Source: a virus (lineage: Duplodnaviria > Heunggongvirae > Uroviricota > Caudoviricetes). Taken from it: a stretch of DNA of 13,502 nt. Position 1 is the first letter of the stretch. Each line of letters begins with the position of its first letter. Positions 1-13,502 of the stretch are shown here, piece by piece. The notes under the pieces were generated by a model. It ran no database searches, was not told the origin of the DNA, and saw nothing but the letters and a program-made list of their open reading frames with translations. A program made the position numbers and the translations under genes. Location of the stretch: positions 1 to 13,502 of the IMG/VR virus record IMGVR_UViG_2526164596_000007. One strand, given 5' to 3'.

Positions 1-577
1 AACAAGGGGAAATTTGCGCCTGGATCGCACGAATAAACGGTTCGAAGGAGCGATGCGTGATTTGTTGCTGAATAAAACTTTTATCCAGCATGACGCGGGT
101 GAAAAGACCATCAAAAACCGCTTTCATTGTGCTATTACCTGCTCCCAAATTGCCTAACACAAGGGGATACATTTGCGATAAGGATAAAAGATCGCGATTA
201 TCTTTTCCTTCATTGAGATGCGGGTAATTCTCATTAATCAACAGTTCAATAAACGGATATTTTAATAGTTCGCCTGCGTAATTATCCCTCTCTAATAATA
301 ATGTAGCCACTTGTGGCGTTAAATTAAGCCAGGCAAAGAGTTTATGTTGAATAAAAAAATGTTGGCATGATTTTAGTAATTCCAACTGCTCTGAAAATAA
401 TTGCCAATGTTGCTCCTCGGTAAGTTGCGCTATAACCCGACTCGTCGGGATACGCACCGTGCCATCTTCACTGGAGAAATGGGTAATTAACTCAACGCCG
501 ACAAGGAGTTGCTGGTTATCTCTTATCGGCAGGAAATAGCAATCAGAATGATAAAGATTCTCCAAAAAAATCTTCAT
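1..577 (-). CDS. ydiV: Anti-FlhDC factor YdiV (EAL-like), partial; 3' end lies beyond the window start
   Basis: Reverse-strand translation from the ATG at 577..575 reads MKIFLENLYHSDCYFLPIRDNQQLLVGVELIT..., matching my recollection of E. coli YdiV. The open frame runs to the window edge. Not in the ORF track because no stop codon falls inside the window. Confidence 0.8.
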   Translation of the reverse strand, partial: MKIFLENLYHSDCYFLPIRDNQQLLVGVELITHFSSEDGTVRIPTSRVIAQLTEEQHWQLFSEQLELLKSCQHFFIQHKLFAWLNLTPQVATLLLERDNYAGELLKYPFIELLINENYPHLNEGKDNRDLLSLSQMYPLVLGNLGAGNSTMKAVFDGLFTRVMLDKSFIQQQITHRSFEPFIRAIQAQISPC

Positions 578-783
578 GGTAACCGTCCCTCTCGAAGGAT
601 GTTTTTCAGTATCCGGCTAAAAGGGATGAGGCCATAAGACATAACAATTACAGAAGGAGTAACTTTCATTTGTTCCATGTTAACCACTTTTTCAGGGGTC
701 CTTTTTTTAGATTATCCTGATTATAAACGAATAATCCATTTACGGAATTTTTGTCTGCAAAATACTACTGTATTCAGGAGTAA

Positions 784-816
784 ATGGACGGCGATGTATC
801 ATCGCCGTCCATTTTT
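784..816. terminator. Perfect 13-bp inverted repeat (784-796 / 800-812, 3-nt loop) followed by T5 on the plus strand, just 3' of nlpC
   Basis: Seen in sequence: atggacggcgatg-tat-catcgccgtccat then ttttt. The A-run/T-run arrangement favours plus-strand termination, but it may act bidirectionally at the end of nlpC. Confidence 0.4.
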
Positions 817-823
817 CGACATA

Positions 824-1288
824 CTAGATTCGTCTCGCCTGCCAGAAATTTTTCTGCCAATAGACATTATCAAGTGAGGAACGCATCACTCCCTTGCTGG
901 TAGAGGCGTGGATAAATTGGTTGTTGGTATCGTAAATACCTACATGCAAACCATTTTGTCCGGACCCCGTTTTGAAAAAGACCAGGTCACCAGGCAGCAA
1001 CTCGTCTTTATCAATTTGCGTGCCGATAGAGGCTTGTTCTTTGGTTTCTCGGGGCAGCTGCAAATCGAAACGATCGCGCATCGTTACAACCACAAATCCC
1101 GAACAGTCCACACCGCGCCGCGTCATGCCACCATAACGATACGGCGTGCCATGCCAGCTTTGTAGCTGGTCGTTCAAACCGGCAATAACGGTAATCGAAT
1201 CAGAAAGTCTGGCATTTGGCGGCGGTGCTTTATGGTGGCTACACCCGGCCAGAAACAGTGCTGTGATCAAAATAAGGCAGAAACGCAT
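824..1288 (-). CDS. nlpC: NlpC/P60-family lipoprotein NlpC
   Basis: 154-aa ORF with a lipoprotein signal and lipobox (LFLAGC) and an NlpC/P60-like Cys motif (GVDCSGFV). Its position downstream of btuD matches the E. coli K-12 gene order. Confidence 0.9.
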   Translation of the reverse strand: MRFCLILITALFLAGCSHHKAPPPNARLSDSITVIAGLNDQLQSWHGTPYRYGGMTRRGVDCSGFVVVTMRDRFDLQLPRETKEQASIGTQIDKDELLPGDLVFFKTGSGQNGLHVGIYDTNNQFIHASTSKGVMRSSLDNVYWQKNFWQARRI

Positions 1289-1365
1289 TCCGTACGGTTC
1301 CTCTGTTTTTTATTCTTGCATTAATTTAGCGTCGTAATTACCCGATTTTCAAGATACTAATGAAA

Positions 1366-2115
1366 TCAGATGGTCGAAATCAGCATTCTGTGACCTTCGA
1401 TATCCAGACGGCGAAAATTCATCCCATAGGCCTGCGCCAGATTTGGCGGCGTGAGCACCTCTTCTCTGCGTCCACTGGCCAGCATTTTTCCACCTTTTAG
1501 CAACCACGCCCGATGCGCATGACGCAATGTGTGGTTGAGATCGTGACTGCTCATCACAATCGCCAGTCCTTGCTGACACAGAGCGCTCAGAATTTTGTCT
1601 AACGCACTTTGTTGCGCAACATCAAGACTGTTCATCGGCTCATCAAGAAGCAGCAATTGACCTGCGGGATTGGCTTGTGGTGTGATTTGCAGCACCACCG
1701 CAGCAAGACGTACGCGTTGCCATTCACCGCCGGAAAGTTGATTGGTGCTACGTCCGAGTTTGTCATCAAGAGCCAGCGCCCCTGCGACATCATTCAGTAG
1801 TTCGGTACGCGTTTTATCGTGCTGATGCAGTGTCAGGTAGTGCCAGACCGGCATTGCAAACGGCGGCGTCTGCTGTTGTGAAAGATAGGCGCGATGCAGC
1901 GCGAGTTTTGTTGCGGACCATGCTTCCAGGGGTTGCCCCGCGAACTGAATGCTTCCCTTACCGCTGGTCATTCCGGCCATTCGTGCAAGCAAGGTACTCT
2001 TACCCGCGCCATTCGGCCCCACCAGATGCAGGATCTCCCCAGCCCGAACCTCGCCAGAAAGTGGCCCCAGGCGGGTAGATTCCGCAACATCCTGTAACTG
2101 CATCACAATAGACAT
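1366..2115 (-). CDS. btuD: Vitamin B12 ABC transporter ATP-binding subunit BtuD
   Basis: 249 aa with Walker A (GPNGAGKST), ABC signature (LSGGEWQR) and Walker B (LLLLDEP). Sits in the expected btuCED context. Confidence 0.95.
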
Positions 2116-2666
2116 TATTTTGCCAACGCCAGTTTAATGCTTTCCATCACAATGGGGTCTTCCGGCGTCATATCCGGGGAAAAACGCTGGATGACCAATC
2201 CGTCCCTGCCAACTAAAAATTTCTCAAAATTCCATAAAATATCATCAGGGTACAGCGGTGCACGACCTTTGCTGACCATACGGGCATAGAATCCGCTCTC
2301 TTCCGGCGCGACTGCGGTCGGCGCTGCGGCAATCAATTTTTGATACAGCGGATGGCGTCCTTCGCCATTAACTTCAATCTTACTGAACATCGGGAACGTC
2401 ACCCCCCATGTGGTGGTACAGTAAGTTTTAATCTCTTCATCGCTGCCCGGTTCTTGTTCCAGAAACTGGTTGCACGGGAATCCCAGCACCACAAAACCTC
2501 GATCGGCCCAGGCTTTCTGAATATTCTCCAACTGCTCATATTGCGGCGTTAAGCCACACTTTGAGGCGACATTGACAATCAACAGCACATTACCGGCGTA
2601 CTTCTCCAGCGTGGTCACTTCACCGTCGATATCTTTCACTACGGTCGTCAGAATGGAATCTTGCAT
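2115..2666 (-). CDS. btuE: Glutathione peroxidase-family protein BtuE
   Basis: 183 aa with a GPx-like active-site region ([23 protein letters not shown]). Its stop shares base 2115 with the btuD start. Confidence 0.95.
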
Positions 2667-2728
2667 CGTTTCTCCTGGGTGTGGTCAGTAAAAATCTTAG
2701 CTTTTAATCATAGACCGTCTTTTTGCGG

Positions 2729-3709
2729 CTAACGTCCTGCTTTTAACAATAACCAGATAAACACCGGCGCACCCAACGTTGCGGTGACCACGCCAATAGG
2801 CAGCTCTGCGGCAGCTAATGCCAAGCGCGCTACAACATCGGCCAGCAGCAATGCGCTCGCCCCTGCCAGCGCGCAGCCGGGAAGTAATACGCGATGATCG
2901 GTTAAACCACACAACCGAAGAATATGTGGGATCACCAGACCAATAAAGCCGATAGCACCCGCCAGCGCCACACTGACGCCAACCATCCAGCCGGTCGCTG
3001 CCACCAGCACATTGCGCCAGAACCACAGGGGTAAACCCAGTTGCCGCGCCGAGATCTCGCCAAGTGCTAACATATTCATCGGCCTGGACTGACAACAGAT
3101 CCACAACAACACGGGGATCAATGCCAGCATCAGCCAGCTTTGCCGCCAGTCTACGCCGCCAAAACCGCCCATCATCCAGTACATCAGCTGACGTAAATCA
3201 ACAGAGGTGGAAAAGTAGATAGCCCACGTCATTAGTGCGCTACAGATAATCCCTAATGCAACGCCAGCCAGCAATAACCGACTGGTCGAAAGATGACGAC
3301 GGGCGAAACGTAAGAGTATTAAAGTGATGATAAGCGCGCCAGCAATCGCACACAGCCCTAGTGCCCAGTTTGGGAGTTGCCCTTGCCCAAGCAATACCGC
3401 GGCGATAAGCCCTACGCCTGCGCCGTTAGAGACGCCAAGTAGTCCAGGTTCTGCCAGAGGATTTTCAAACAACGCCTGCATTACTGCGCCGGATATAGCC
3501 AGCGCCGCACCAACCAGCAATACAGCCAGCGTACGTGGCAGGCGAATCTGCCAGACGAACAGTTCGCCACGAGGAGAAAACCAGTCACCTGGCGAGATCC
3601 ATTGTTCACCGGCGCAAAGGCTTAAGAGAAGCGCCAGCAGCATCAAAACTGACAGGCATAATAACCAGCGAATATTTTGTCGCTGTTGTTGGCGGGCAAG
3701 TGTCAGCAT
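2729..3709 (-). CDS. btuC: Vitamin B12 ABC transporter permease BtuC
   Basis: 326-aa, highly hydrophobic polytopic membrane protein of the FecCD/BtuC permease type. First gene of the btuCED cluster. Confidence 0.95.
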
Positions 3710-3766
3710 GGTATCCGTTCTGCTGAAGTGTCATGGCGTTGATTTTACGGTGACTCTTCGACAGTG

Positions 3767-3792
3767 AAAAGAAAAAAGGCCGCAGAGCGGCC
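3767..3792 (-). terminator. Rho-independent terminator for leftward (minus-strand) transcription
   Basis: Seen in sequence: GC stem ggccgc-aga-gcggcc (3778-3792) that on the minus strand is followed by a T-rich run (plus-strand A-run 3767-3777). It lies 69 bp upstream of the btuC start, at the junction with the phage-like DNA. Confidence 0.6.
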
Positions 3793-3807
3793 ATAAACAC
3801 AAACAAA

Positions 3808-3820
3808 AATCAATAAGTTA
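3808..3820 (+). promoter_or_regulatory. Candidate IHF-binding site in the putative attL region
   Basis: aatcaataagtta matches the IHF consensus WATCAANNNNTTR exactly and is preceded by an A-tract (3801-3809). It lies between the junction and the integrase-proximal direct repeats. Confidence 0.3.
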
Positions 3821-3881
3821 TATAATTATCAAAGGCTTACAGACACACAAAAACACAGCCAACCACAACAAATAACAGGGA

Positions 3882-3901
3882 TGTGGTCACTTTGTGGATC
3901 A
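3882..3901 (+). repeat. Direct repeats TGTGGTCA / TGTGGATCA spaced 11 bp apart; candidate integrase arm-type binding sites
   Basis: Seen in sequence at 3882-3889 and 3893-3901. They resemble the P2 Int arm-site consensus as I recall it (TGTGGACA direct repeats); that consensus is from memory. Confidence 0.3.
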
Positions 3902-4294
3902 TTCGCTCCCCTCTTTTTCCTTATTTCGTTGAACGCCAATTGCGACACACGTACTAAGCAAATCTTTACATTTCTCTACGTCTTCAGACTTACGCAATTT
4001 GATGCTTTTTACAGACTGCGGGCTACTGTCCGTAGCACGATACATCGTTATTTCAATATCATTTCGGTCTAAGAGTCCCATAATGGCTTTTGCAACCTCC
4101 ACACCCTTCTTCGCGAAATCAAAGAACAGAGCAAGTTTATATGGATTTTCGACGGAAAAAACTTCAATTTTGCTAAAACCAACATCGTGTCGAGAAAAAT
4201 ATTGCTCAACCTCATCTCGAAGTTCTGGATCGCAGACAATGTCTATTCTCCAGTACTGACCTAAATGCAAATCGCTATTAACTGTTTTTTCCAC
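3899..4294 (-). CDS. Hypothetical protein (131 aa from GTG at 4294; 138 aa if the TTG at 4315 is used), translationally coupled downstream of int
   Basis: A strong SD (AAGGAGG, 4306..4300 on the minus strand) overlaps the int stop codon, with an in-frame GTG 5 nt downstream. The ORF is AT-rich relative to the integrase and I recognise no family. Confidence 0.55.
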   Translation of the reverse strand: MEKTVNSDLHLGQYWRIDIVCDPELRDEVEQYFSRHDVGFSKIEVFSVENPYKLALFFDFAKKGVEVAKAIMGLLDRNDIEITMYRATDSSPQSVKSIKLRKSEDVEKCKDLLSTCVAIGVQRNKEKEGSE

Positions 4295-4304
4295 AACATC
4301 CTCC

Positions 4305-5279
4305 TTACCCAGCAATAGGATTAAATCTCACCGCATCCTGCAAGTAATCCGGCGCAAGATGGGCATAAATCATCGTTGTCTGAATCTTTGCGTGCCCCAG
4401 AATTTTCTGGAGCGTCAGAATATTGCCGCCGTTCATCATGAAATGACTGGCGAAGGTGTGGCGCAGCGCATGAACAGCCTGGCCGTCAGGAACATCAGGT
4501 GCGACCGTTTTGATGACATCGCGAACCAATGGATAATCCAGCGTCGGAAACACCAGTTTCCCGCCCCGTTTTTTGATCTTTTCAAACAGGCTTTCAGAAA
4601 TAGGAACGGTACGGTTTTTGCTGTTCTTCGTTTTTGAAAAAGTGATTCGACAATGAAGAACACGGCGCTGCTCCAGTACCGCTACCTCGCCCCATCGCGC
4701 CCCGGTCGACAGAAGGATTTCGACAGCCAGCCGTTCATCGGGATTTTCAGCCAGTGCATCCAGCAACTGAACACATTCAGACTTACTCAGATATCCCATT
4801 TCGCGCTCGTTAACCTTCATTCCTTTAAGGCCTTGAACGGGGTTATCGTTAAGAAAATGGCCGGATGAGATGAGTGCGGTAAACATCGCGCTTAACGCCC
4901 CAATCTCTCGATTTATGGTGCTGGGCTGTATCCCCTGCTCTATCCTGGACACACGTAGCTCGGTGAGCATCGTTGTATTAAGTTTATGCACGCACGGGTC
5001 ATCCATTGCCTCACTCAAGCGCAGCAATTTAAGGCGCGTGTTATGCCCTGACTTCATTAGCTGGCCGTGGTATTTCCACCACAAGTCAATAAGCACTGAC
5101 AGCGGACGGCGATCAATGGAGTTTCCTTTCCACTCATTGTTATGCTGTTGCGCCAGCACCCACCGCTCATATAAAACTGCATCCGATTTCGTTTTAAATT
5201 TTTTACGAATGCGTTTGCCTTTACGCCCCTCCGGGCGCATGTCAAGAAGATACCCTCCCGGAATTGATTTTATGCTCAT
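4305..5279 (-). CDS. int: P2-type tyrosine integrase
   Basis: 324 aa with tyrosine-recombinase box II (HALRHTFASH) and the catalytic Tyr region (TTMIYAHL). Strong end-to-end resemblance to P2 Int (337 aa) as recalled. Confidence 0.9.
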   Translation of the reverse strand: MSIKSIPGGYLLDMRPEGRKGKRIRKKFKTKSDAVLYERWVLAQQHNNEWKGNSIDRRPLSVLIDLWWKYHGQLMKSGHNTRLKLLRLSEAMDDPCVHKLNTTMLTELRVSRIEQGIQPSTINREIGALSAMFTALISSGHFLNDNPVQGLKGMKVNEREMGYLSKSECVQLLDALAENPDERLAVEILLSTGARWGEVAVLEQRRVLHCRITFSKTKNSKNRTVPISESLFEKIKKRGGKLVFPTLDYPLVRDVIKTVAPDVPDGQAVHALRHTFASHFMMNGGNILTLQKILGHAKIQTTMIYAHLAPDYLQDAVRFNPIAG

Positions 5280-5328
5280 TCGTGAAACCCCAGCGTTACA
5301 AGACCACCATGCCCCCAGCGCTCCATGA

Positions 5329-5637
5329 TTAGCCGGGCTGTGTGCCAGTCTTGCGGGGTTTTTGAGAAGGCGATGTGCTTTTTAGCCCATCAGGGGAGAG
5401 AGACGGACTGATCTGCCCAGCAGCCTCATTTGTTTTTCCCGTCATAAGCCAATTCATGTACTTAAAAAAGCGAGGGTGATTAACAATCTTGATAAGCACT
5501 TCGCCACCTATGTTTTCAATCCGCCCCGTTTCATAACGACGCAAAGTGCCGATAGGCACATCAATCAGGCCGCAAAATTCTTCGCGCGTTAAATCCTCTG
5601 ATTCACGAATCACTCTAATTTTTTCACCGATAAGCAT
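5329..5637 (-). CDS. P2 C-like immunity repressor (HTH)
   Basis: 102 aa (P2 C is 99 aa as recalled), with an HTH-like N-terminus (LTREEFCGLIDVPIGTLRRYETG). It sits upstream of int on the same strand and is divergent from the cox-like gene across a palindromic operator region. Confidence 0.7.
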   Translation of the reverse strand: MLIGEKIRVIRESEDLTREEFCGLIDVPIGTLRRYETGRIENIGGEVLIKIVNHPRFFKYMNWLMTGKTNEAAGQISPSLSPDGLKSTSPSQKPRKTGTQPG

Positions 5638-8142: not shown

Positions 8143-8464
8143 GAAACCAGAACATGCACACACAAAAAAACCGCTTGCCATGCCGCAATCAGTCAGGTTA
8201 CATTTCCACTGCACCTCATAAAACGGGTGCCGGGTTTCGCAGCCTGCTGACTACACAAGCGCACAACCGCGCCAGCGGTTTTTTTGTGCGTACTGTATTG
8301 CCACGTTTTTTTCGCGTCAGAATTATGGCGGGGCGTACGGGGCCGACTTCGGTCGGGCCGGGTTCTTGTGTAGCCGGTACTGCGAACCTCGTACGTCTCG
8401 CCACCCACAGTTTCGCAGCTCTGGATGGTGAGTTTTCACAACTTACTACACAAGGGGCCACACC
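8143..8464 (+). other. GC-rich, hairpin-rich non-coding island (candidate structured RNA or regulatory element)
   Basis: No plausible ORF. Contains a 15-bp inverted repeat (8161-8175 / 8274-8288) flanking about 100 bp, a C(UUCG)G tetraloop hairpin at 8343-8356, and a short hairpin plus T7 run at 8267-8285. Confidence 0.35.
8267..8285 (+). terminator. Putative weak intrinsic terminator (ccgc-gcca-gcgg followed by T7)
   Basis: Seen in sequence. The stem is short (4-6 bp), so the call is tentative. Confidence 0.35.
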
Positions 8465-8695
8465 ATGGCAAACCGCAAACAGCACCGCGCTATCGCGGAG
8501 CGTCGTCACATCCAGACTGAAATCAACCGCAGACTTTTCCGCGCATCACGCGTCGCGCAAATCATGCACATCAATATGCTGCATGAGCGCAGCCACGCAC
8601 TATCAAACATCTATTCCGCCGCTGTTTTCAGCTATCTGGCGGATGATCTGCACGAGCTTCAACAGCTCATCCAGCAGCAAAACAAACTCCATTAA
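8465..8695 (+). CDS. Hypothetical protein (76 aa)
   Basis: SD AGGGG at 8452-8456 precedes the ATG; charged, helical-looking sequence with no cysteines, so not Ogr-like. Confidence 0.5.
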   Translation: MANRKQHRAIAERRHIQTEINRRLFRASRVAQIMHINMLHERSHALSNIYSAAVFSYLADDLHELQQLIQQQNKLH

Positions 8696-9139: not shown

Positions 9140-12013
9140 ATGACGGCAGAGTACATCAGGGACTGGCAACAACCGCGCCACGCAGTGGGGCGTGAAGGAA
9201 CGGGGATCCCCGCTCCTGAATCCGCGCTTTCCTCCTGGCTGGATGCCTACCGGGTAGAGAACGAGCGCCGCCAGGAAATGGCTGATGCGGCGTTCTCCGC
9301 AACGCCGCTGGGCAACCTGATTAATAAAAGCCTGGACGCACAGGAAAAACAGGACAAAACCATCACACTGGCAGGAGACGCCAGAAAACAGGCACGCGGC
9401 GCGGTGGATGAAGCCATGGCCTCGCTGCGCCTGCTGCCGTCCTATCTGCGCGATCCGCTTATTCGCCACCTCTCCTTCCTGCGCAAAAAACAGGAAGCCG
9501 ATCGCCGGAAAGGCAAAAAGAGCTGGCAGGCGGAACGCTATGCACGCGGAACCCTGCGCAAAATATTCGAACGTCTGGATCGCACTGACAGACACTGGCT
9601 GACACCGGGTTACCGCTCCCTTGCTGGACGCGAACGCCTGGACGATTTGCTTTACCTGCCGCAGCTCAACAAACACCAGATACAGACGCTGGCCACCATG
9701 ACAGCGGCGATGTTCAGCAGCACCTTCGAAAAACTCTGCGATGGCTTTGGCGCGACCGATGGCGAACTGACCATGGATGTAACGCTGAAGGCGTATCAGA
9801 TGCTGGCCCGCATGGCGTTACACCTGCACATCATGCCTCCACATTATGACGCACTGACAACAGATAAAGACCGGAGGAACGAACCGGACACGGAGCTGCT
9901 GCCGGGCGCAATCCTTCGCCTGACCTGTGCGGAATGGTGGAAACGCAAACTGTGGCTGTTACGTTGCGAGTGGAGAGAAGAACAACTCCGCGCCGCCTGT
10001 CTGGTTTCCAGAAAAACATCACCCTATCTGAGCCAGGACGCGTTAAGCGAGTTTCGCGCACAGCGCGAGAAAACACGCGATTTCCTGAAAAGTTTCATGC
10101 TGGAAAACGAAGACGGGTTCACGATTGATCTCGAGACAGTGTATTACGCGGGAGTAAGTAACCCGGTTCACCGTAAGGCAGAAATGATGGCCACCATGAA
10201 GGGGCTGGAACTTCTGGCCGAAGCCCGTGGCGACAAAGCGGTGTTTCTGACTGTCACCTGCCCGTCAAAATACCACGCCACAACAGAGAACGGTCATCCG
10301 AATCCCAAATGGAACGGGGCCACCATGCGCGACTCCAGCGATTACCTGGTTAACACGTTTTTTGCGGCGGTCCGCAAAAAACTGAACCGCGACGGCCTGC
10401 GCTGGTATGGCATCCGCACGGTGGAGCCTCACCATGACGGCACCGTGCACTGGCACATGATGGTCTTTGCTCATCCGGAAGAAATCGACAGCATCGTGGC
10501 CATCACCCGCGATATTGCCATTCAGGAAGACCGCCACGAGCTGGGCAATGATATTACTCCGCGCTTTAAGGCGGAGTATGTCGACGGCTCAAAAGGCACA
10601 CCAACCAGCTACATCGCCACCTACATCGGAAAGAACCTGGACAGCCGCGCCGTGGATGGCATCGACCCGAAAACGGGCAAGCCACGCGTTGACCACGAAA
10701 CCGGAAAATCAATGGCCGAGAGTGTGGAACGCGCCATCGGCTGGGCGCGCCTTCACCGGGTCCGCCAGTTCCAGTTCTTTGGCATCCCCTCCCGTCAGGT
10801 ATGGCGTGAACTCCGCCGCCTTGCCAGCCAGATGGCACGCAACCCGGAAGGCCCACAACGGCTGAAGGATGATGCAATGGATGCGGTACTCGCTGCCGCT
10901 GATGCCGGGTGTTTTGCCACCTACATTGAGAAACAGGGCGGCGTACTTGTTCCACGCAAAGACTACCTGATTCGCACCGCCTACGACCTCGCAGATGAGC
11001 TGAACGATTACGGCGAACAGAGCGTACAGATTTACGGGATCTGGTCACCACTCATCGGGGAATCCTCCCGTGTGTGCACGCACCCGGATAACTGGAAGCT
11101 GGTAAGACGTAAACCGGAAGCGGAAGACAGCACCCGCGAAAATGGTTTTGACCTTCAGGGCGGCCCTGCCGCCCCTTGGACTCGTGGCAATAACTGTCCC
11201 CGTGTACAGGAAACGGACAACAACGGGACAGAACAGCCGGAAGAACGGCCAGCACCGTGGCCGCAGCTCCCTGACGGCGTTGAAGTGAACGAATGGATGC
11301 GCTCACTGAAACGGCACGAACGCCGGGCGCTGATGCGTTCGCTTCGTGACAAACAGGCAAAAAACAGCAGTGATGAAATGCAGAGCTGGACACAGAGCCG
11401 CAAACAGCAGCGGCCTTTGCCTGATAACCACGAATTACTCGCTAAAGAATGGCGGGAGTCTGCTGAAGCTCTCGGCCTGCATATCGGTGAACAGCAGATG
11501 CAGCACCTGTTACGGGGCGGCAGTCTGTACGTTGACGGCAGCATCATTGCACCGCAGGGATTTGAAATTGTACGCAAACCGGATACCCGACCGGACAGCC
11601 GGATCACGCAGCTCTGGCAGCGCCTGAGCCGTAACCACGGCGTAAGCAGCACGGAGATCCGCCATAACCCGGTCGCCAGCTATCTGGCACAGCTGGGGGC
11701 ATCAGACCACGAAGCCGCCGCACGCCTGGCATCCACACTTCAGCAGGACCAGAACACCATGAAAACACCCGTTACCGTGCTTTCTGACATGCTGCGCGCC
11801 ATCCGCGACGCAGAGCACGCACAGAGAATCAGTGAAACCACTGAACGCGCCCGCCGCAAAGCAGATCTGCTGCGGGGTAGCCTGACCAGTGGAAACAAAA
11901 AACAGACAGAAACGGGATTCACAAATCCCGTAAATGAGCAAAAACGCGCCGCGATATATGAAGCGCGCACAAAACAGGCAAAAACGGGATTTCAGAATCC
12001 CGTAAACGATTAA
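9140..12013 (+). CDS. HUH rolling-circle replication initiator, P2 gpA family, with an extended C-terminus
   Basis: 957 aa. HUH motif HWH at residues 437-439 (VHWHMMVF) and a paired-tyrosine motif YIATYIGK (Y491/Y495) analogous to phiX174 gpA / P2 A. Positioned as the last early gene, as in P2. Confidence 0.85.
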   Translation: MTAEYIRDWQQPRHAVGREGTGIPAPESALSSWLDAYRVENERRQEMADAAFSATPLGNLINKSLDAQEKQDKTITLAGDARKQARGAVDEAMASLRLLPSYLRDPLIRHLSFLRKKQEADRRKGKKSWQAERYARGTLRKIFERLDRTDRHWLTPGYRSLAGRERLDDLLYLPQLNKHQIQTLATMTAAMFSSTFEKLCDGFGATDGELTMDVTLKAYQMLARMALHLHIMPPHYDALTTDKDRRNEPDTELLPGAILRLTCAEWWKRKLWLLRCEWREEQLRAACLVSRKTSPYLSQDALSEFRAQREKTRDFLKSFMLENEDGFTIDLETVYYAGVSNPVHRKAEMMATMKGLELLAEARGDKAVFLTVTCPSKYHATTENGHPNPKWNGATMRDSSDYLVNTFFAAVRKKLNRDGLRWYGIRTVEPHHDGTVHWHMMVFAHPEEIDSIVAITRDIAIQEDRHELGNDITPRFKAEYVDGSKGTPTSYIATYIGKNLDSRAVDGIDPKTGKPRVDHETGKSMAESVERAIGWARLHRVRQFQFFGIPSRQVWRELRRLASQMARNPEGPQRLKDDAMDAVLAAADAGCFATYIEKQGGVLVPRKDYLIRTAYDLADELNDYGEQSVQIYGIWSPLIGESSRVCTHPDNWKLVRRKPEAEDSTRENGFDLQGGPAAPWTRGNNCPRVQETDNNGTEQPEERPAPWPQLPDGVEVNEWMRSLKRHERRALMRSLRDKQAKNSSDEMQSWTQSRKQQRPLPDNHELLAKEWRESAEALGLHIGEQQMQHLLRGGSLYVDGSIIAPQGFEIVRKPDTRPDSRITQLWQRLSRNHGVSSTEIRHNPVASYLAQLGASDHEAAARLASTLQQDQNTMKTPVTVLSDMLRAIRDAEHAQRISETTERARRKADLLRGSLTSGNKKQTETGFTNPVNEQKRAAIYEARTKQAKTGFQNPVND
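11912..12003. repeat. Two copies of the palindrome acgggatt-N4-aatcccgt, 72 bp apart, inside the 3' end of the replicase ORF and just upstream of parM; candidate parC-like centromere and ParR operator
   Basis: Seen in sequence at 11912-11931 and 11984-12003. A possible parM promoter (TTCAGA at 11990-11995, ATTAAT at 12013-12018) overlaps the second copy. Confidence 0.45.
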
Positions 12014-12037
12014 TTAATCAACATAAGGAAAAGCGAC

Positions 12038-12998
12038 ATGAAAATTTGTATCGATGACGGCTCCACCAACATCAAGCTGGCATGGACTGAGAACGGCGAA
12101 CGCCGCAACGCCATCAGCCCGAACAGCTTCAAGTCGGAATGGTCTGCGCCGTTCGGTGACACGCAGCCCGCGAACTACATGCTTGATGGCGTGCGCTATG
12201 GTTTTGATCCGGTCAGCGATCGCTTTGTCCAGACGACCGACACGCAATACCAGTACAGCGATGTGAATGTCATTGCCATTCATCACGCGCTGGTCAAATC
12301 AGGCATCACACCACAGGAAGTGGATGTGGTTGTCACCCTGCCACTGAGCGAATATTTCGACACAAACGCACAGCCGGACATGGCCAACATCAACCGCAAA
12401 AAAGCAAACGTCGTGCGCCCGGTGGCGTACCAGAACGGAAAAAGCATTCACTATCCGTAACGTACGGGTTATGCCTGAATCCATTCCGGCTGGCTTTAAG
12501 GCACTGGCTGACATGAGTCCGTTTGAATCCCTGCTGATTGTGGATTTAGGCGGAACCACGCTGGATGTGGCAAAGGTTCAGGGACAACTGGCAGGTATCA
12601 GCCAGGTGTTTTGCGATCCACACGTAGGCGTTTCCCTGATGGCCGATGCCGTACTGTCGGTGATGGCCACTAACGGTATGCGTACCAGTCACCACATCGC
12701 CAATACCATTATCGAACATCGCCATGATGAAGCCTGGCTGCGCCAGCACATCCACAATGACGCGCATTACGCCAGCCTGATGGCGGTTATTCGTGAAAAG
12801 GAAGAAACACTGAAACAACGCGTGATCCGCGCGCTGGCGGGTTTTTCGGGTTACGGGCGGGTGATGGTTGTCGGTGGCGGGGCGGAGATTGTGGCACCCG
12901 CTATCCGCGAAGCCTGCGGAGTTAATGCGACTTTCATCGCGGACGGGGTGCCACAGTTTGCTCTGGTTAATGGGCTGTACGCAATGGACAAGGAGTAA
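12038..12998 (+). pseudogene. parM: ParM/StbA-type actin-like segregation ATPase, interrupted by a +1 frameshift in an A5 run
   Basis: N-terminus MKICIDDGSTNIKLAW matches R1 ParM (MLVFIDDGSTNIKLQW) as recalled. Phosphate-2 (LLIVDLGGTTLD) and adenosine (VMVVGGGAEI) motifs are present. The frame shifts from the 12038 frame to the 12471 frame at aaaaa (12439-12443); removing one A restores a continuous ORF of about 319 aa. Confidence 0.8.
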
Positions 12999-13002
12999 AC
13001 CA

Positions 13003-13314
13003 ATGACGACACCAACCAGACGGATAAGTTTCTATCTGAAGCCCGCCGCCGTCAAGAACGAAGGCGAAGCATGCGCCTGGCTGGACAGCCTTACACCAGA
13101 AGCCCGCAAAAGTGGTCAACGTGTGGCTTTTCTGGCCGGGCTGGCACTACTGAAAATGAATCCGGCAGAGGCTTACCGACTGGCTGCATGGGCTGATTAT
13201 GAGGCGTTATCAGTGACACAAACCAGGACAGAACGCCCCGCGTCACAGCCAGTATCAGCCGCACAGATAACCAGTCAGATGGCCGGAAATATCCGGGCGT
13301 TATTTCCCGAATAA
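13003..13314 (+). CDS. parR: ParR-like centromere-binding protein (103 aa)
   Basis: SD AGGAG at 12991-12995 sits 7 nt before the ATG. The N-terminal segment (RRISFYLKP...LDSL...AFLAGLAL) and C-terminal IRALFPE resemble R1 ParR as recalled. Lies immediately downstream of parM, as in parMRC loci. Confidence 0.65.
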   Translation: MTTPTRRISFYLKPAAVKNEGEACAWLDSLTPEARKSGQRVAFLAGLALLKMNPAEAYRLAAWADYEALSVTQTRTERPASQPVSAAQITSQMAGNIRALFPE

Positions 13315-13377
13315 CACAACATCAGGGCGCATCCGCCCGGATGACTTTAACCCGGGAGCATAAACAAGGGGGACACA

Positions 13378-13502
13378 ATGCAACACATTGACAGAGAAAA
13401 AGCGCAGCGACTGATTGAGCGGATGGAAGCGCTGGCGAAAGAAGAAAATGTCAACATCCAAAAAATAGCTGAATGTGGCCAGATAGTTCTTCGTCGTGAA
13501 AA
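13378..13502 (+). CDS. Hypothetical protein, 5' portion only (runs off the window end)
   Basis: SD-like aaggggga upstream of the ATG at 13378; the frame stays open to the window end (MQHIDREKAQRLIERMEALAKEENVNIQKIAECGQIVLRRE...). Confidence 0.4.
   Translation, partial: MQHIDREKAQRLIERMEALAKEENVNIQKIAECGQIVLRRE

Follow-up and report, generated by a model that had tools for sequence, protein, structure and literature searches.

Two palindromes upstream of parM as a probable ParR-binding site of a compact partition cassette in P88-like prophages of Escherichia coli

The DNA analysed here (the window: the whole 13,502 nucleotides (nt) of IMG/VR virus record IMGVR_UViG_2526164596_000007) carries a P88-like prophage of Escherichia coli in which the replicase gene is followed by parM and parR, encoding an actin-like ATPase and its adaptor. 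Two palindromes with identical arms stand directly before parM and lie within the 3' end of the replicase open reading frame (ORF). We propose that they are probably a parC-like, ParR-binding cis site belonging to a compact ParM/ParR cassette of the R1 family, and that they probably act as an operator as well. The parts of the locus, in window coordinates, are as follows.

9140-12013, plus strand: replicase gene (P2 gpA family), 957 amino acids; Pfam Phage_GPA, E = 9.5e-132
11896-13315, plus strand: compact cassette of putative parC, parM and parR, about 1.4 kb, comprising two repeat units, parM and parR
11896-11937: repeat unit 1, 42 nt, with an A-rich tract ahead of palindrome 1; its start is the left edge of the cassette
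11912-11931: site 1, ACGGGATTCACAAATCCCGT, that is ACGGGATT-CACA-AATCCCGT, with the core GGG-N10-CCC at 11914-11929; inside the last replicase codons
11940-11944, plus strand: run of five A (A5), where relatives have six (A6); the base fewer fuses site 2 into the replicase ORF
11945-11967: GC-rich spacer element CGCGCCGCGATATATGAAGCGCGC, containing a TGA at 11959-11961
11968-12009: repeat unit 2, 42 nt, a direct repeat of unit 1
11984-12003: site 2, ACGGGATTTCAGAATCCCGT, that is ACGGGATT-TCAG-AATCCCGT, 54 nt ahead of the parM ATG; nearly all relatives have it between genes
12013-12018, plus strand: ATTAAT box, part of ATTAATCAA; candidate weak -10 element, picked by eye and not called by the promoter scan
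12025-12029, plus strand: Shine-Dalgarno sequence AAGGA, following the ATTAAT box
12038-12998, plus strand: parM (R1-type actin-like ATPase), split in the window into 12038-12460 and 12471-12998
13003-13314, plus strand: parR (Plasmid_stab_B / R1 StbB family), 103 amino acids; PF10784, E = 9.4e-24

Both palindromes were evident on reading the sequence and to a repeat finder, and they stand well above chance: with up to three mismatches allowed, ACGGGATT-N4-AATCCCGT matches twice in 13.5 kb, both times here, against a chance expectation of 0.07, and none of 200 shuffles reached two matches. The relaxed core GGGATT-N4-AATCCC is confined to this position, in the window as well as in the whole 35.8-kb P88 genome; the half-site alone shows no enrichment elsewhere in the window, which contains no iteron arrays, only the two 20-bp dyads. 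The sites are 72 base pairs (bp) apart, start to start, each lying inside one of the two 42-nt units, which the repeat finder aligned as direct repeats with 81% identity. A sequence-only reading of this DNA had described the paired palindromes, the GC-rich partial palindrome CGCGCCGCG...GCGCGC between them, and a position in frame within the 957-residue ORF that gives the tail ...TGFTNPVNE...TGFQNPVND*, and all of these are present. The phasing of A-tracts was considered as a sign of bent DNA and set aside: the signal is weak, being attained by 37 of 2000 shuffles, and unspecific, an 8-bp period having as much power as one of 10 bp.

The genes behind the palindromes are clear members of the R1 partition family. 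An intact orthologue of ParM (locus L030) matches the Pfam families StbA_N (1.8e-82) and the ParM C-terminal domain (4.6e-68), and ParM matches the R1 ParM chain 1mwk in the PDB with E = 1e-92. ParR aligns with its counterparts from R1-type plasmids, pOXA-48, IncI plasmids and the phage-plasmid D6, and keeps an N-terminal RRISFYLKP and a C-terminal NI..FP in 14 variants down to 43% identity. Searching the PDB with the ParR sequence gave no relevant match, and an AlphaFold2 monomer built on an alignment of 14 sequences was poor (mean predicted local distance difference test score 58), with helices at residues 20-29 and 32-52 after the N-terminal segment, so that we ascribe a ribbon-helix-helix fold to ParR by family membership only. 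The features of a type II partition system are found together here: a ParM/StbA-family ATPase, the gene for a StbB-family adaptor directly downstream of parM, and a repeated cis site beside the operon and conserved with it (two dyads, in 158 loci and in the outgroups described below); the R1 arrangement of 10-11-bp iterons in two clusters around a promoter is absent. Public records of P88-type phages already annotate parM and parR, and they leave the cis site unannotated; within the literature library searched, no paper on the ParMR system or centromere of P88 or Xuanwuvirus was found. In the window itself parM is broken into ORFs of 140 and 175 amino acids by a CG-to-AAA change at about 12439-12443, and the gene is intact (319 amino acids) in 108 of 117 related loci; either it is dead in this prophage or the sequence is in error.

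Conservation was followed first among close relatives. Positions 9140-13502 are 97.5% identical to Escherichia phage P88, 13 further phage records cover most of the stretch, and the region around the palindromes (query 11890-12045) occurs in 1,302 of 5,426 complete E. coli genomes, in up to three copies per genome, and is thereby a very common prophage module. The palindromes are retained in every one of the 158 related loci whose upstream region is intact, spaced by 73 bp in 153 of them, 74 bp in three and 72 bp in two, and in 75 of 76 distinct upstream variants site 2 begins 54 nt ahead of the parM ATG. Across these 76 variants columns 3-6 (GGGA) and 13-17 (AATCC) of the 20-mer are invariant, while the loop bases vary (CACA, CACG, TACG and CATG in site 1; TCAG, TAAA, TGAA and CCAG in site 2), as does the outermost pair; among 23 distinct arm variants there is no compensatory, two-sided change. 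In a relative from Hafnia, with a ParR 74% identical, a TGA within the site 1 loop ends the replicase and the spacer is non-coding, yet both cores and the 73-bp spacing are kept, and the spacer, shifted internally by one base in each direction through compensating indels, still measures 53 nt. A search of species-representative genomes with ParM returned three loci only, all 97-98% identical, and added no diversity.

The limits of the conserved unit become visible where the cassette has come to stand behind other genes. In P88-like prophages of the P2 family it lies between the replicase gene and the portal gene. Units 1 and 2, separated by a 30-nt spacer, come first, and a ribosome-binding site, parM and parR follow; the cassette is found behind three different upstream genes, and its left edge is always about 16 nt before palindrome 1. 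Locus L030 has a different replicase of 773 amino acids and extra ORFs upstream, and homology resumes at window position 11897, a small unrelated ORF reading site 1; locus L043 has another replicase type and a 145-residue zinc-ribbon ORF upstream, and homology runs from 11895 to 13315, right after the parR stop, with site 1 read in a different frame. From these edges it follows that the unit is 11896-13315 and that the replicase gene merely runs into it. The sequence-only reading had placed the palindromes where a parC-like centromere and operator would be expected, and they indeed lie directly upstream of parM-parR and move with the two genes as one cassette. A role as replicase origin was set aside, as the sites move with parMR behind a different replicase type; an annotation of "nicking at origin" in phage 520873 refers to a fragment of a frameshifted replicase gene and not to an origin feature. 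Locus L016 had looked like a natural cassette boundary just before site 2 and was set aside as uninformative: it is a decayed IMG/VR prophage with an IS66-family insertion and a deletion, in which the element (566-3273 of that locus; three ORFs including a TnpB-like protein of 115 amino acids) replaces the replicase 3' end and site 1.

Searching with ParM also brought up other P2-like prophages with the same order of replicase, parM, parR and portal, and these allow the site to be compared with the adaptor. Two of them, L173 from Hafnia and L175 from Plesiomonas (ParM 62% identical), have exactly two GGG-N10-CCC dyads each within 300 nt upstream of parM, where by our own estimate about 0.07 single matches per 300 nt would arise by chance; the dyads are 73 bp (L173) and 72 bp (L175) apart, and the second lies 55 nt and 59 nt, respectively, before the ATG. 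The inner bases of these dyads bear no relation to those of the P88 type, so that they fall short of true palindromes; stems measure 3-4 bp and loops 10 nt, with mostly non-significant folding and no stable hairpin. Two further relatives, L176 from Serratia (ParM 58%) and L179 from Enterobacter (53%), are without dyads and have long inverted arms instead (GGGAAC..AATAGAAAAAT / ATTTTTCT.TTTC). At 3370-3480 of L176 and about 2870-2990 of L179 a left flank GGCAAAAA(C/T)GGGA common with the P88 type is followed by the arms GAAATAGAAAAATG / CATTTTTCTATTTC, and these arms may represent a related but rearranged centromere. The plasmid relatives (ParM at most 52% identical: R1-type, pOXA-48, IncI and D6) have 10-11-bp direct iterons in two clusters. 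ParR differs along the same lines: its N-terminal strand reads TRR(I/V)SFYL in every lineage with GGG-N10-CCC dyads; Serratia and Enterobacter have NRKISFYL, the R1 type has RRTIAFKL, and the lineages with either of the latter two strands lack such dyads and carry other repeats. This suggests that the type of site tracks the strand with which ParR presumably reads DNA, the rearranged arms of L176 and L179 going with the NRKISFYL form.

The start of parM offers little in the way of a promoter. The sequence-only reading had placed putative -35 and -10 hexamers over the second palindrome, and this was not borne out by a consensus scan of 11600-12300, in which no sigma-70-type promoter reached the threshold; the best hexamers that can be picked by hand over site 2 are weak (TTCAGA, a 16-nt spacer and ATTAAT, each matching four of six positions). 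ATTAATCAA, situated about 20-25 nt before the ATG and common to the three lineages with GGG-N10-CCC dyads (P88 type, L173 and L175), is the sole promoter-like candidate for parM, and a weak one.

Several lines of evidence lead us to favour a ParR-binding site: the palindromes are unique, non-random and immediately upstream of a clear R1-family parM-parR pair; the cassette edge is common to the contexts of L030 and L043, and cores and spacing are kept while loops drift; and L173 and L175 keep the dyads without the hairpin, lineages with another ParR strand carrying other repeats. We envisage that ParR dimers would bind each 20-bp dyad through TRRISFYL, the N-terminal strand of a putative ribbon-helix-helix fold, presumably by contacts to the invariant GGG and CCC half-sites, and that two dyads 73 bp apart, or about seven helical turns, would lie on the same face of the DNA. 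The resulting complex would act as a centromere by capping ParM filaments as in plasmid R1, and so serve segregation; it may also repress transcription into parM, site 2 being near enough to the parM start to influence its expression. The replicase gene itself reads into this cassette and normally stops between the two sites; in the window a one-base deletion in the A6 run shifts the frame and lets the ORF continue across site 2.

That the palindromes are read in frame by the replicase, described as a striking overlap of cis site and repeated C-terminal peptide in the sequence-only reading, is a peculiarity of this DNA and of one other locus. The replicase is 940 amino acids long in most relatives and is so annotated in P88 and Shae_phiSM, where GAGCAAAAAACGCG (A6) replaces the A5 of the window and the gene stops at the TGA of ATATATGA, between the palindromes, leaving a 76-nt gap to parM; with A6 the corresponding stop in the window is the TGA at 11959-11961, so that site 2 becomes intergenic. 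We compared the run in 107 loci, taken from IMG/VR and from reference records, whose site 2 is exact: it is A6 in 101 and AAAAGA in one (six bases, then, in 102 of 107), A7 in three and A5 in two, the window and L038. Only two indels are private to the window over 9140-13502 against some 90 relatives, the A5 deletion and the CG-to-AAA change in parM, and none of the 5,426 complete E. coli genomes matches the window region exactly, the best matches listed being 157 nt long where the window has 156. A5 is either a real allele or a homopolymer sequencing error, L038 showing it independently. The peptide is translated twice because A5 puts the 42-nt units 72 bp apart, a multiple of three.

In most relatives the last 21 codons of the 940-residue replicase are cassette DNA, and the Phage_GPA domain spans residues 179-503 only. 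Translated over all loci, about 115 tails are of the short ...NEQKTRRDI* type, two are long and repeated and three are of the A7 type; three more tail frames, produced by indels in an upstream A-run, end in or just after site 1, and at least six different termini exist. That upstream run, AACAAAAAACAG, stands just before site 1 (11896-11911) and varies in length among relatives, giving further replicase termini, and the 3' end of the gene is, going by these alignments, a hotspot of homopolymer indels. Since there are at least six termini and another frame or gene reads site 1 in other contexts, the tail is conserved as DNA and not as protein; no conserved gpA tail with the repeated motif was found, the other gpA types (L030, L043 and L118) being entirely without it. 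One could still imagine that TGF(T/Q)NPVN(E/D) has a function in the replicase, with the A-run as a switch between short and long forms, given that the long ORF occurs in the window and independently in L038 and that the indel falls in a slippage-prone homopolymer. We hold this to be extremely improbable, as the long tail is present in just two of about 146 loci, the short form prevails, substitutions that fall in the motif change the amino acid (F to L, V to A), no complete E. coli genome contains the exact window sequence, and the second disruptive indel, in parM, suggests decay or sequence error. As judged from the compared sequences, the replicase tail is not constrained as protein and the repeated peptide is a by-product of the frameshift.

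The main rival explanation treats the palindromes as intrinsic terminators on the minus strand, RNA hairpins with U-rich tails that would keep antisense or leftward transcripts arising in the late or moron region out of the replicase gene and early operon. A terminator scan does call both copies on that strand, with an 8-bp stem containing four G-C pairs, a 4-nt loop, the tails TTTTTGCCTGT and TTCTGTCTGT and hairpin energies of about -10 to -11 kcal/mol, and the A-rich tract, T-rich on the minus strand, belongs to the conserved 42-nt unit. Yet parM and parR are on the plus strand, so that only antisense RNA would be stopped, at least 1.3 kb from any minus-strand gene, and no minus-strand gene ends at the palindromes. 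What is conserved, moreover, is the sequence itself and not its pairing, the 23 arm variants being free of compensatory changes; L173 and L175 keep GGG-N10-CCC and the 72-73-bp spacing with stems of only 3-4 bp, and a fixed spacing of seven turns plays no part in termination. We therefore regard termination as unlikely.

Much of the same evidence bears on the possibility that the palindromes act as plus-strand RNA hairpins in a joint replicase-parM transcript, as processing or stability elements or as an attenuator of read-through into parM. The predicted hairpins are respectable (-10.7 to -11 kcal/mol, z-scores -3.6 to -5.2), and, with no separate promoter found, parM may be co-transcribed with the replicase gene. 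However, neither hairpin is followed by a U-tract on the plus strand, the commonest variant of site 1 (ACGGGACT...) gives a C-A mismatch, and the outgroups lose the hairpin potential and keep the dyads. A search for covariation found no two-sided changes, and the one-sided transitions give wobble pairs on opposite strands, minus in the case of site 1 and plus in that of site 2, which amounts to no consistent signal of an RNA hairpin; a role in RNA seems to us quite unlikely. Nor do we find much to recommend a scar, left by insertion of the cassette or by a tandem duplication of 72/73 bp and without present function. The 42-nt units are, it is true, direct repeats of 81% identity, and the edge of the cassette coincides with the start of unit 1, but a scar would be hard to reconcile with invariant cores amid drifting loops and flanks, with a spacing kept in Hafnia despite compensating indels, and with the same two-dyad layout in lineages whose inner bases are unrelated, and we consider it very unlikely indeed.

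A ParR-binding site nevertheless has points against it. Set against the ten iterons of R1, two dyads with their four half-sites are a small number, and both hairpins of the P88 type also resemble minus-strand intrinsic terminators. Divergence among P88-type loci is low, such that the invariance of the arms is by itself weak evidence, and the correspondence of site type with the ParR N-terminus is drawn from only about four lineages per side. The failure to detect a sigma-70-like promoter leaves the role as operator uncertain; transcription of parM may come through from the early operon. Finally, of the 1,441 places at which the region occurs in complete E. coli genomes, 1439 are chromosomal and two are on plasmids, and what a ParMR system would segregate there is a puzzle.

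The cassette is a variant of a known system, with the proteins and gene order of R1 ParMRC, a smaller and different site, partial overlap with the upstream gene and a prophage as its host. In R1, parC consists of two repeat clusters flanking a 39-bp promoter core, at which ParR represses transcription and builds the partition complex (PMC2241845). The protein families are the same in both systems, as is the order of a cis site directly upstream of parM followed by parR, and in both cases the cis site consists of two units set apart by a spacer of about 40-50 bp (PMC2241845; seen directly in locus L111). The R1 site differs in occupying a long intergenic region, where ten 11-bp direct iterons (5 + 5) surround a clear TTGACT/TAAACT promoter. 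The P88 type has only two 20-bp dyads and lacks a convincing promoter, its intergenic gap measures 76 bp, and site 1 falls inside the upstream gene; the P88-type ParR has 103 amino acids as opposed to 116-117, is 23-30% identical and has a different N-terminal strand, and its host element is an integrated prophage instead of a plasmid. Among other P2-like prophages, L173, L175, L176 and L179 have the cassette in the same place, with the replicase gene on one side and the portal region on the other; L173 and L175 resemble the P88 type in their two dyads 72-73 bp apart and the TRR(I/V)SFYL strand, and L176 and L179 differ from it in their long inverted arms and NRKISFYL strand.

Further afield, a chromosomally encoded ParMR with a centromere-like site of palindromic repeats has been described in Clostridium botulinum, where Cb-cParR binds the three palindromic repeats of Cb-cParC in gel shifts (PMC12270681; the text of that paper places cparC upstream of cParMR and a figure legend after cParR). 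This system belongs to another bacterial phylum, its ParM and ParR are distant and its palindromes number three, the likeness drawn here being one of description. The abstract of a report on prophage CGP3 of Corynebacterium glutamicum describes AlpAC/alpS, an actin-like protein with a DNA-binding adaptor implicated in the transport and replication of phage DNA (PMC5539076); as a prophage-encoded actin-like filament protein with a site-specific adaptor it is a precedent for the role that a ParMR-like system may play in an integrated prophage. The adaptor and its sites, as given there, are unrelated to the P88 type.

The remainder of the window places the cassette in its genomic setting.

within 1-5637, upstream of the prophage: host genes NlpC/P60, btuD-like ABC ATPase, glutathione peroxidase and btuC-like FecCD permease
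4305-5279: phage integrase, adjoining the host genes
5329-5637: repressor

Host genes are followed by a phage integrase and a repressor, so that the P88-like prophage (Xuanwuvirus, P2 family, Peduoviridae) of E. coli in the window is an integrated one. The attachment site is expected near 3710-4300; no tRNA gene is present. In the early region Rfam matches to the Hfq-binding RNA isrK (8211-8285) and to C4 antisense RNA (8321-8408) are followed by an ORF of the "Derepression" family (8465-8695); 8211-8695 looks like a c4/ant-type immunity module in the style of P1/P7 within a P2-like early region, and the long ORFs listed across it are probably spurious.

For annotation, our results mean that the 957-residue replicase with its repeated peptide is a frameshift allele and not a protein feature. 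If ParR does bind the dyads, they would form a very small centromere for an R1-family ParR, with four half-sites at a fixed spacing of seven turns, and would offer a simple test case for the number of ParR dimers needed to cap a ParM filament. The wider question raised is what role a plasmid-partition machine plays in prophages that are almost always integrated and that occur in about a quarter of complete E. coli genomes. A complete P88-like genome deposited as a circular, non-mobilisable "plasmid" of 34.5 kb (NZ_CP148288.1, L172) contains parMR along with integrase and structural genes. The record could represent the phage in episomal or excised state, which has a bearing on the purpose of the cassette. 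As a tentative proposal, which we consider possible but rather doubtful, the cassette may be a minimal, self-contained ParMRC whose centromere, just two ParR dyads at a distance of seven turns, would be far smaller than the parC of R1 and organised differently. Its target would be no plasmid but the phage genome, either excised and replicating or in an episomal carrier state. If this were true, actin-like positioning of DNA would be part of the P2-type life cycle.

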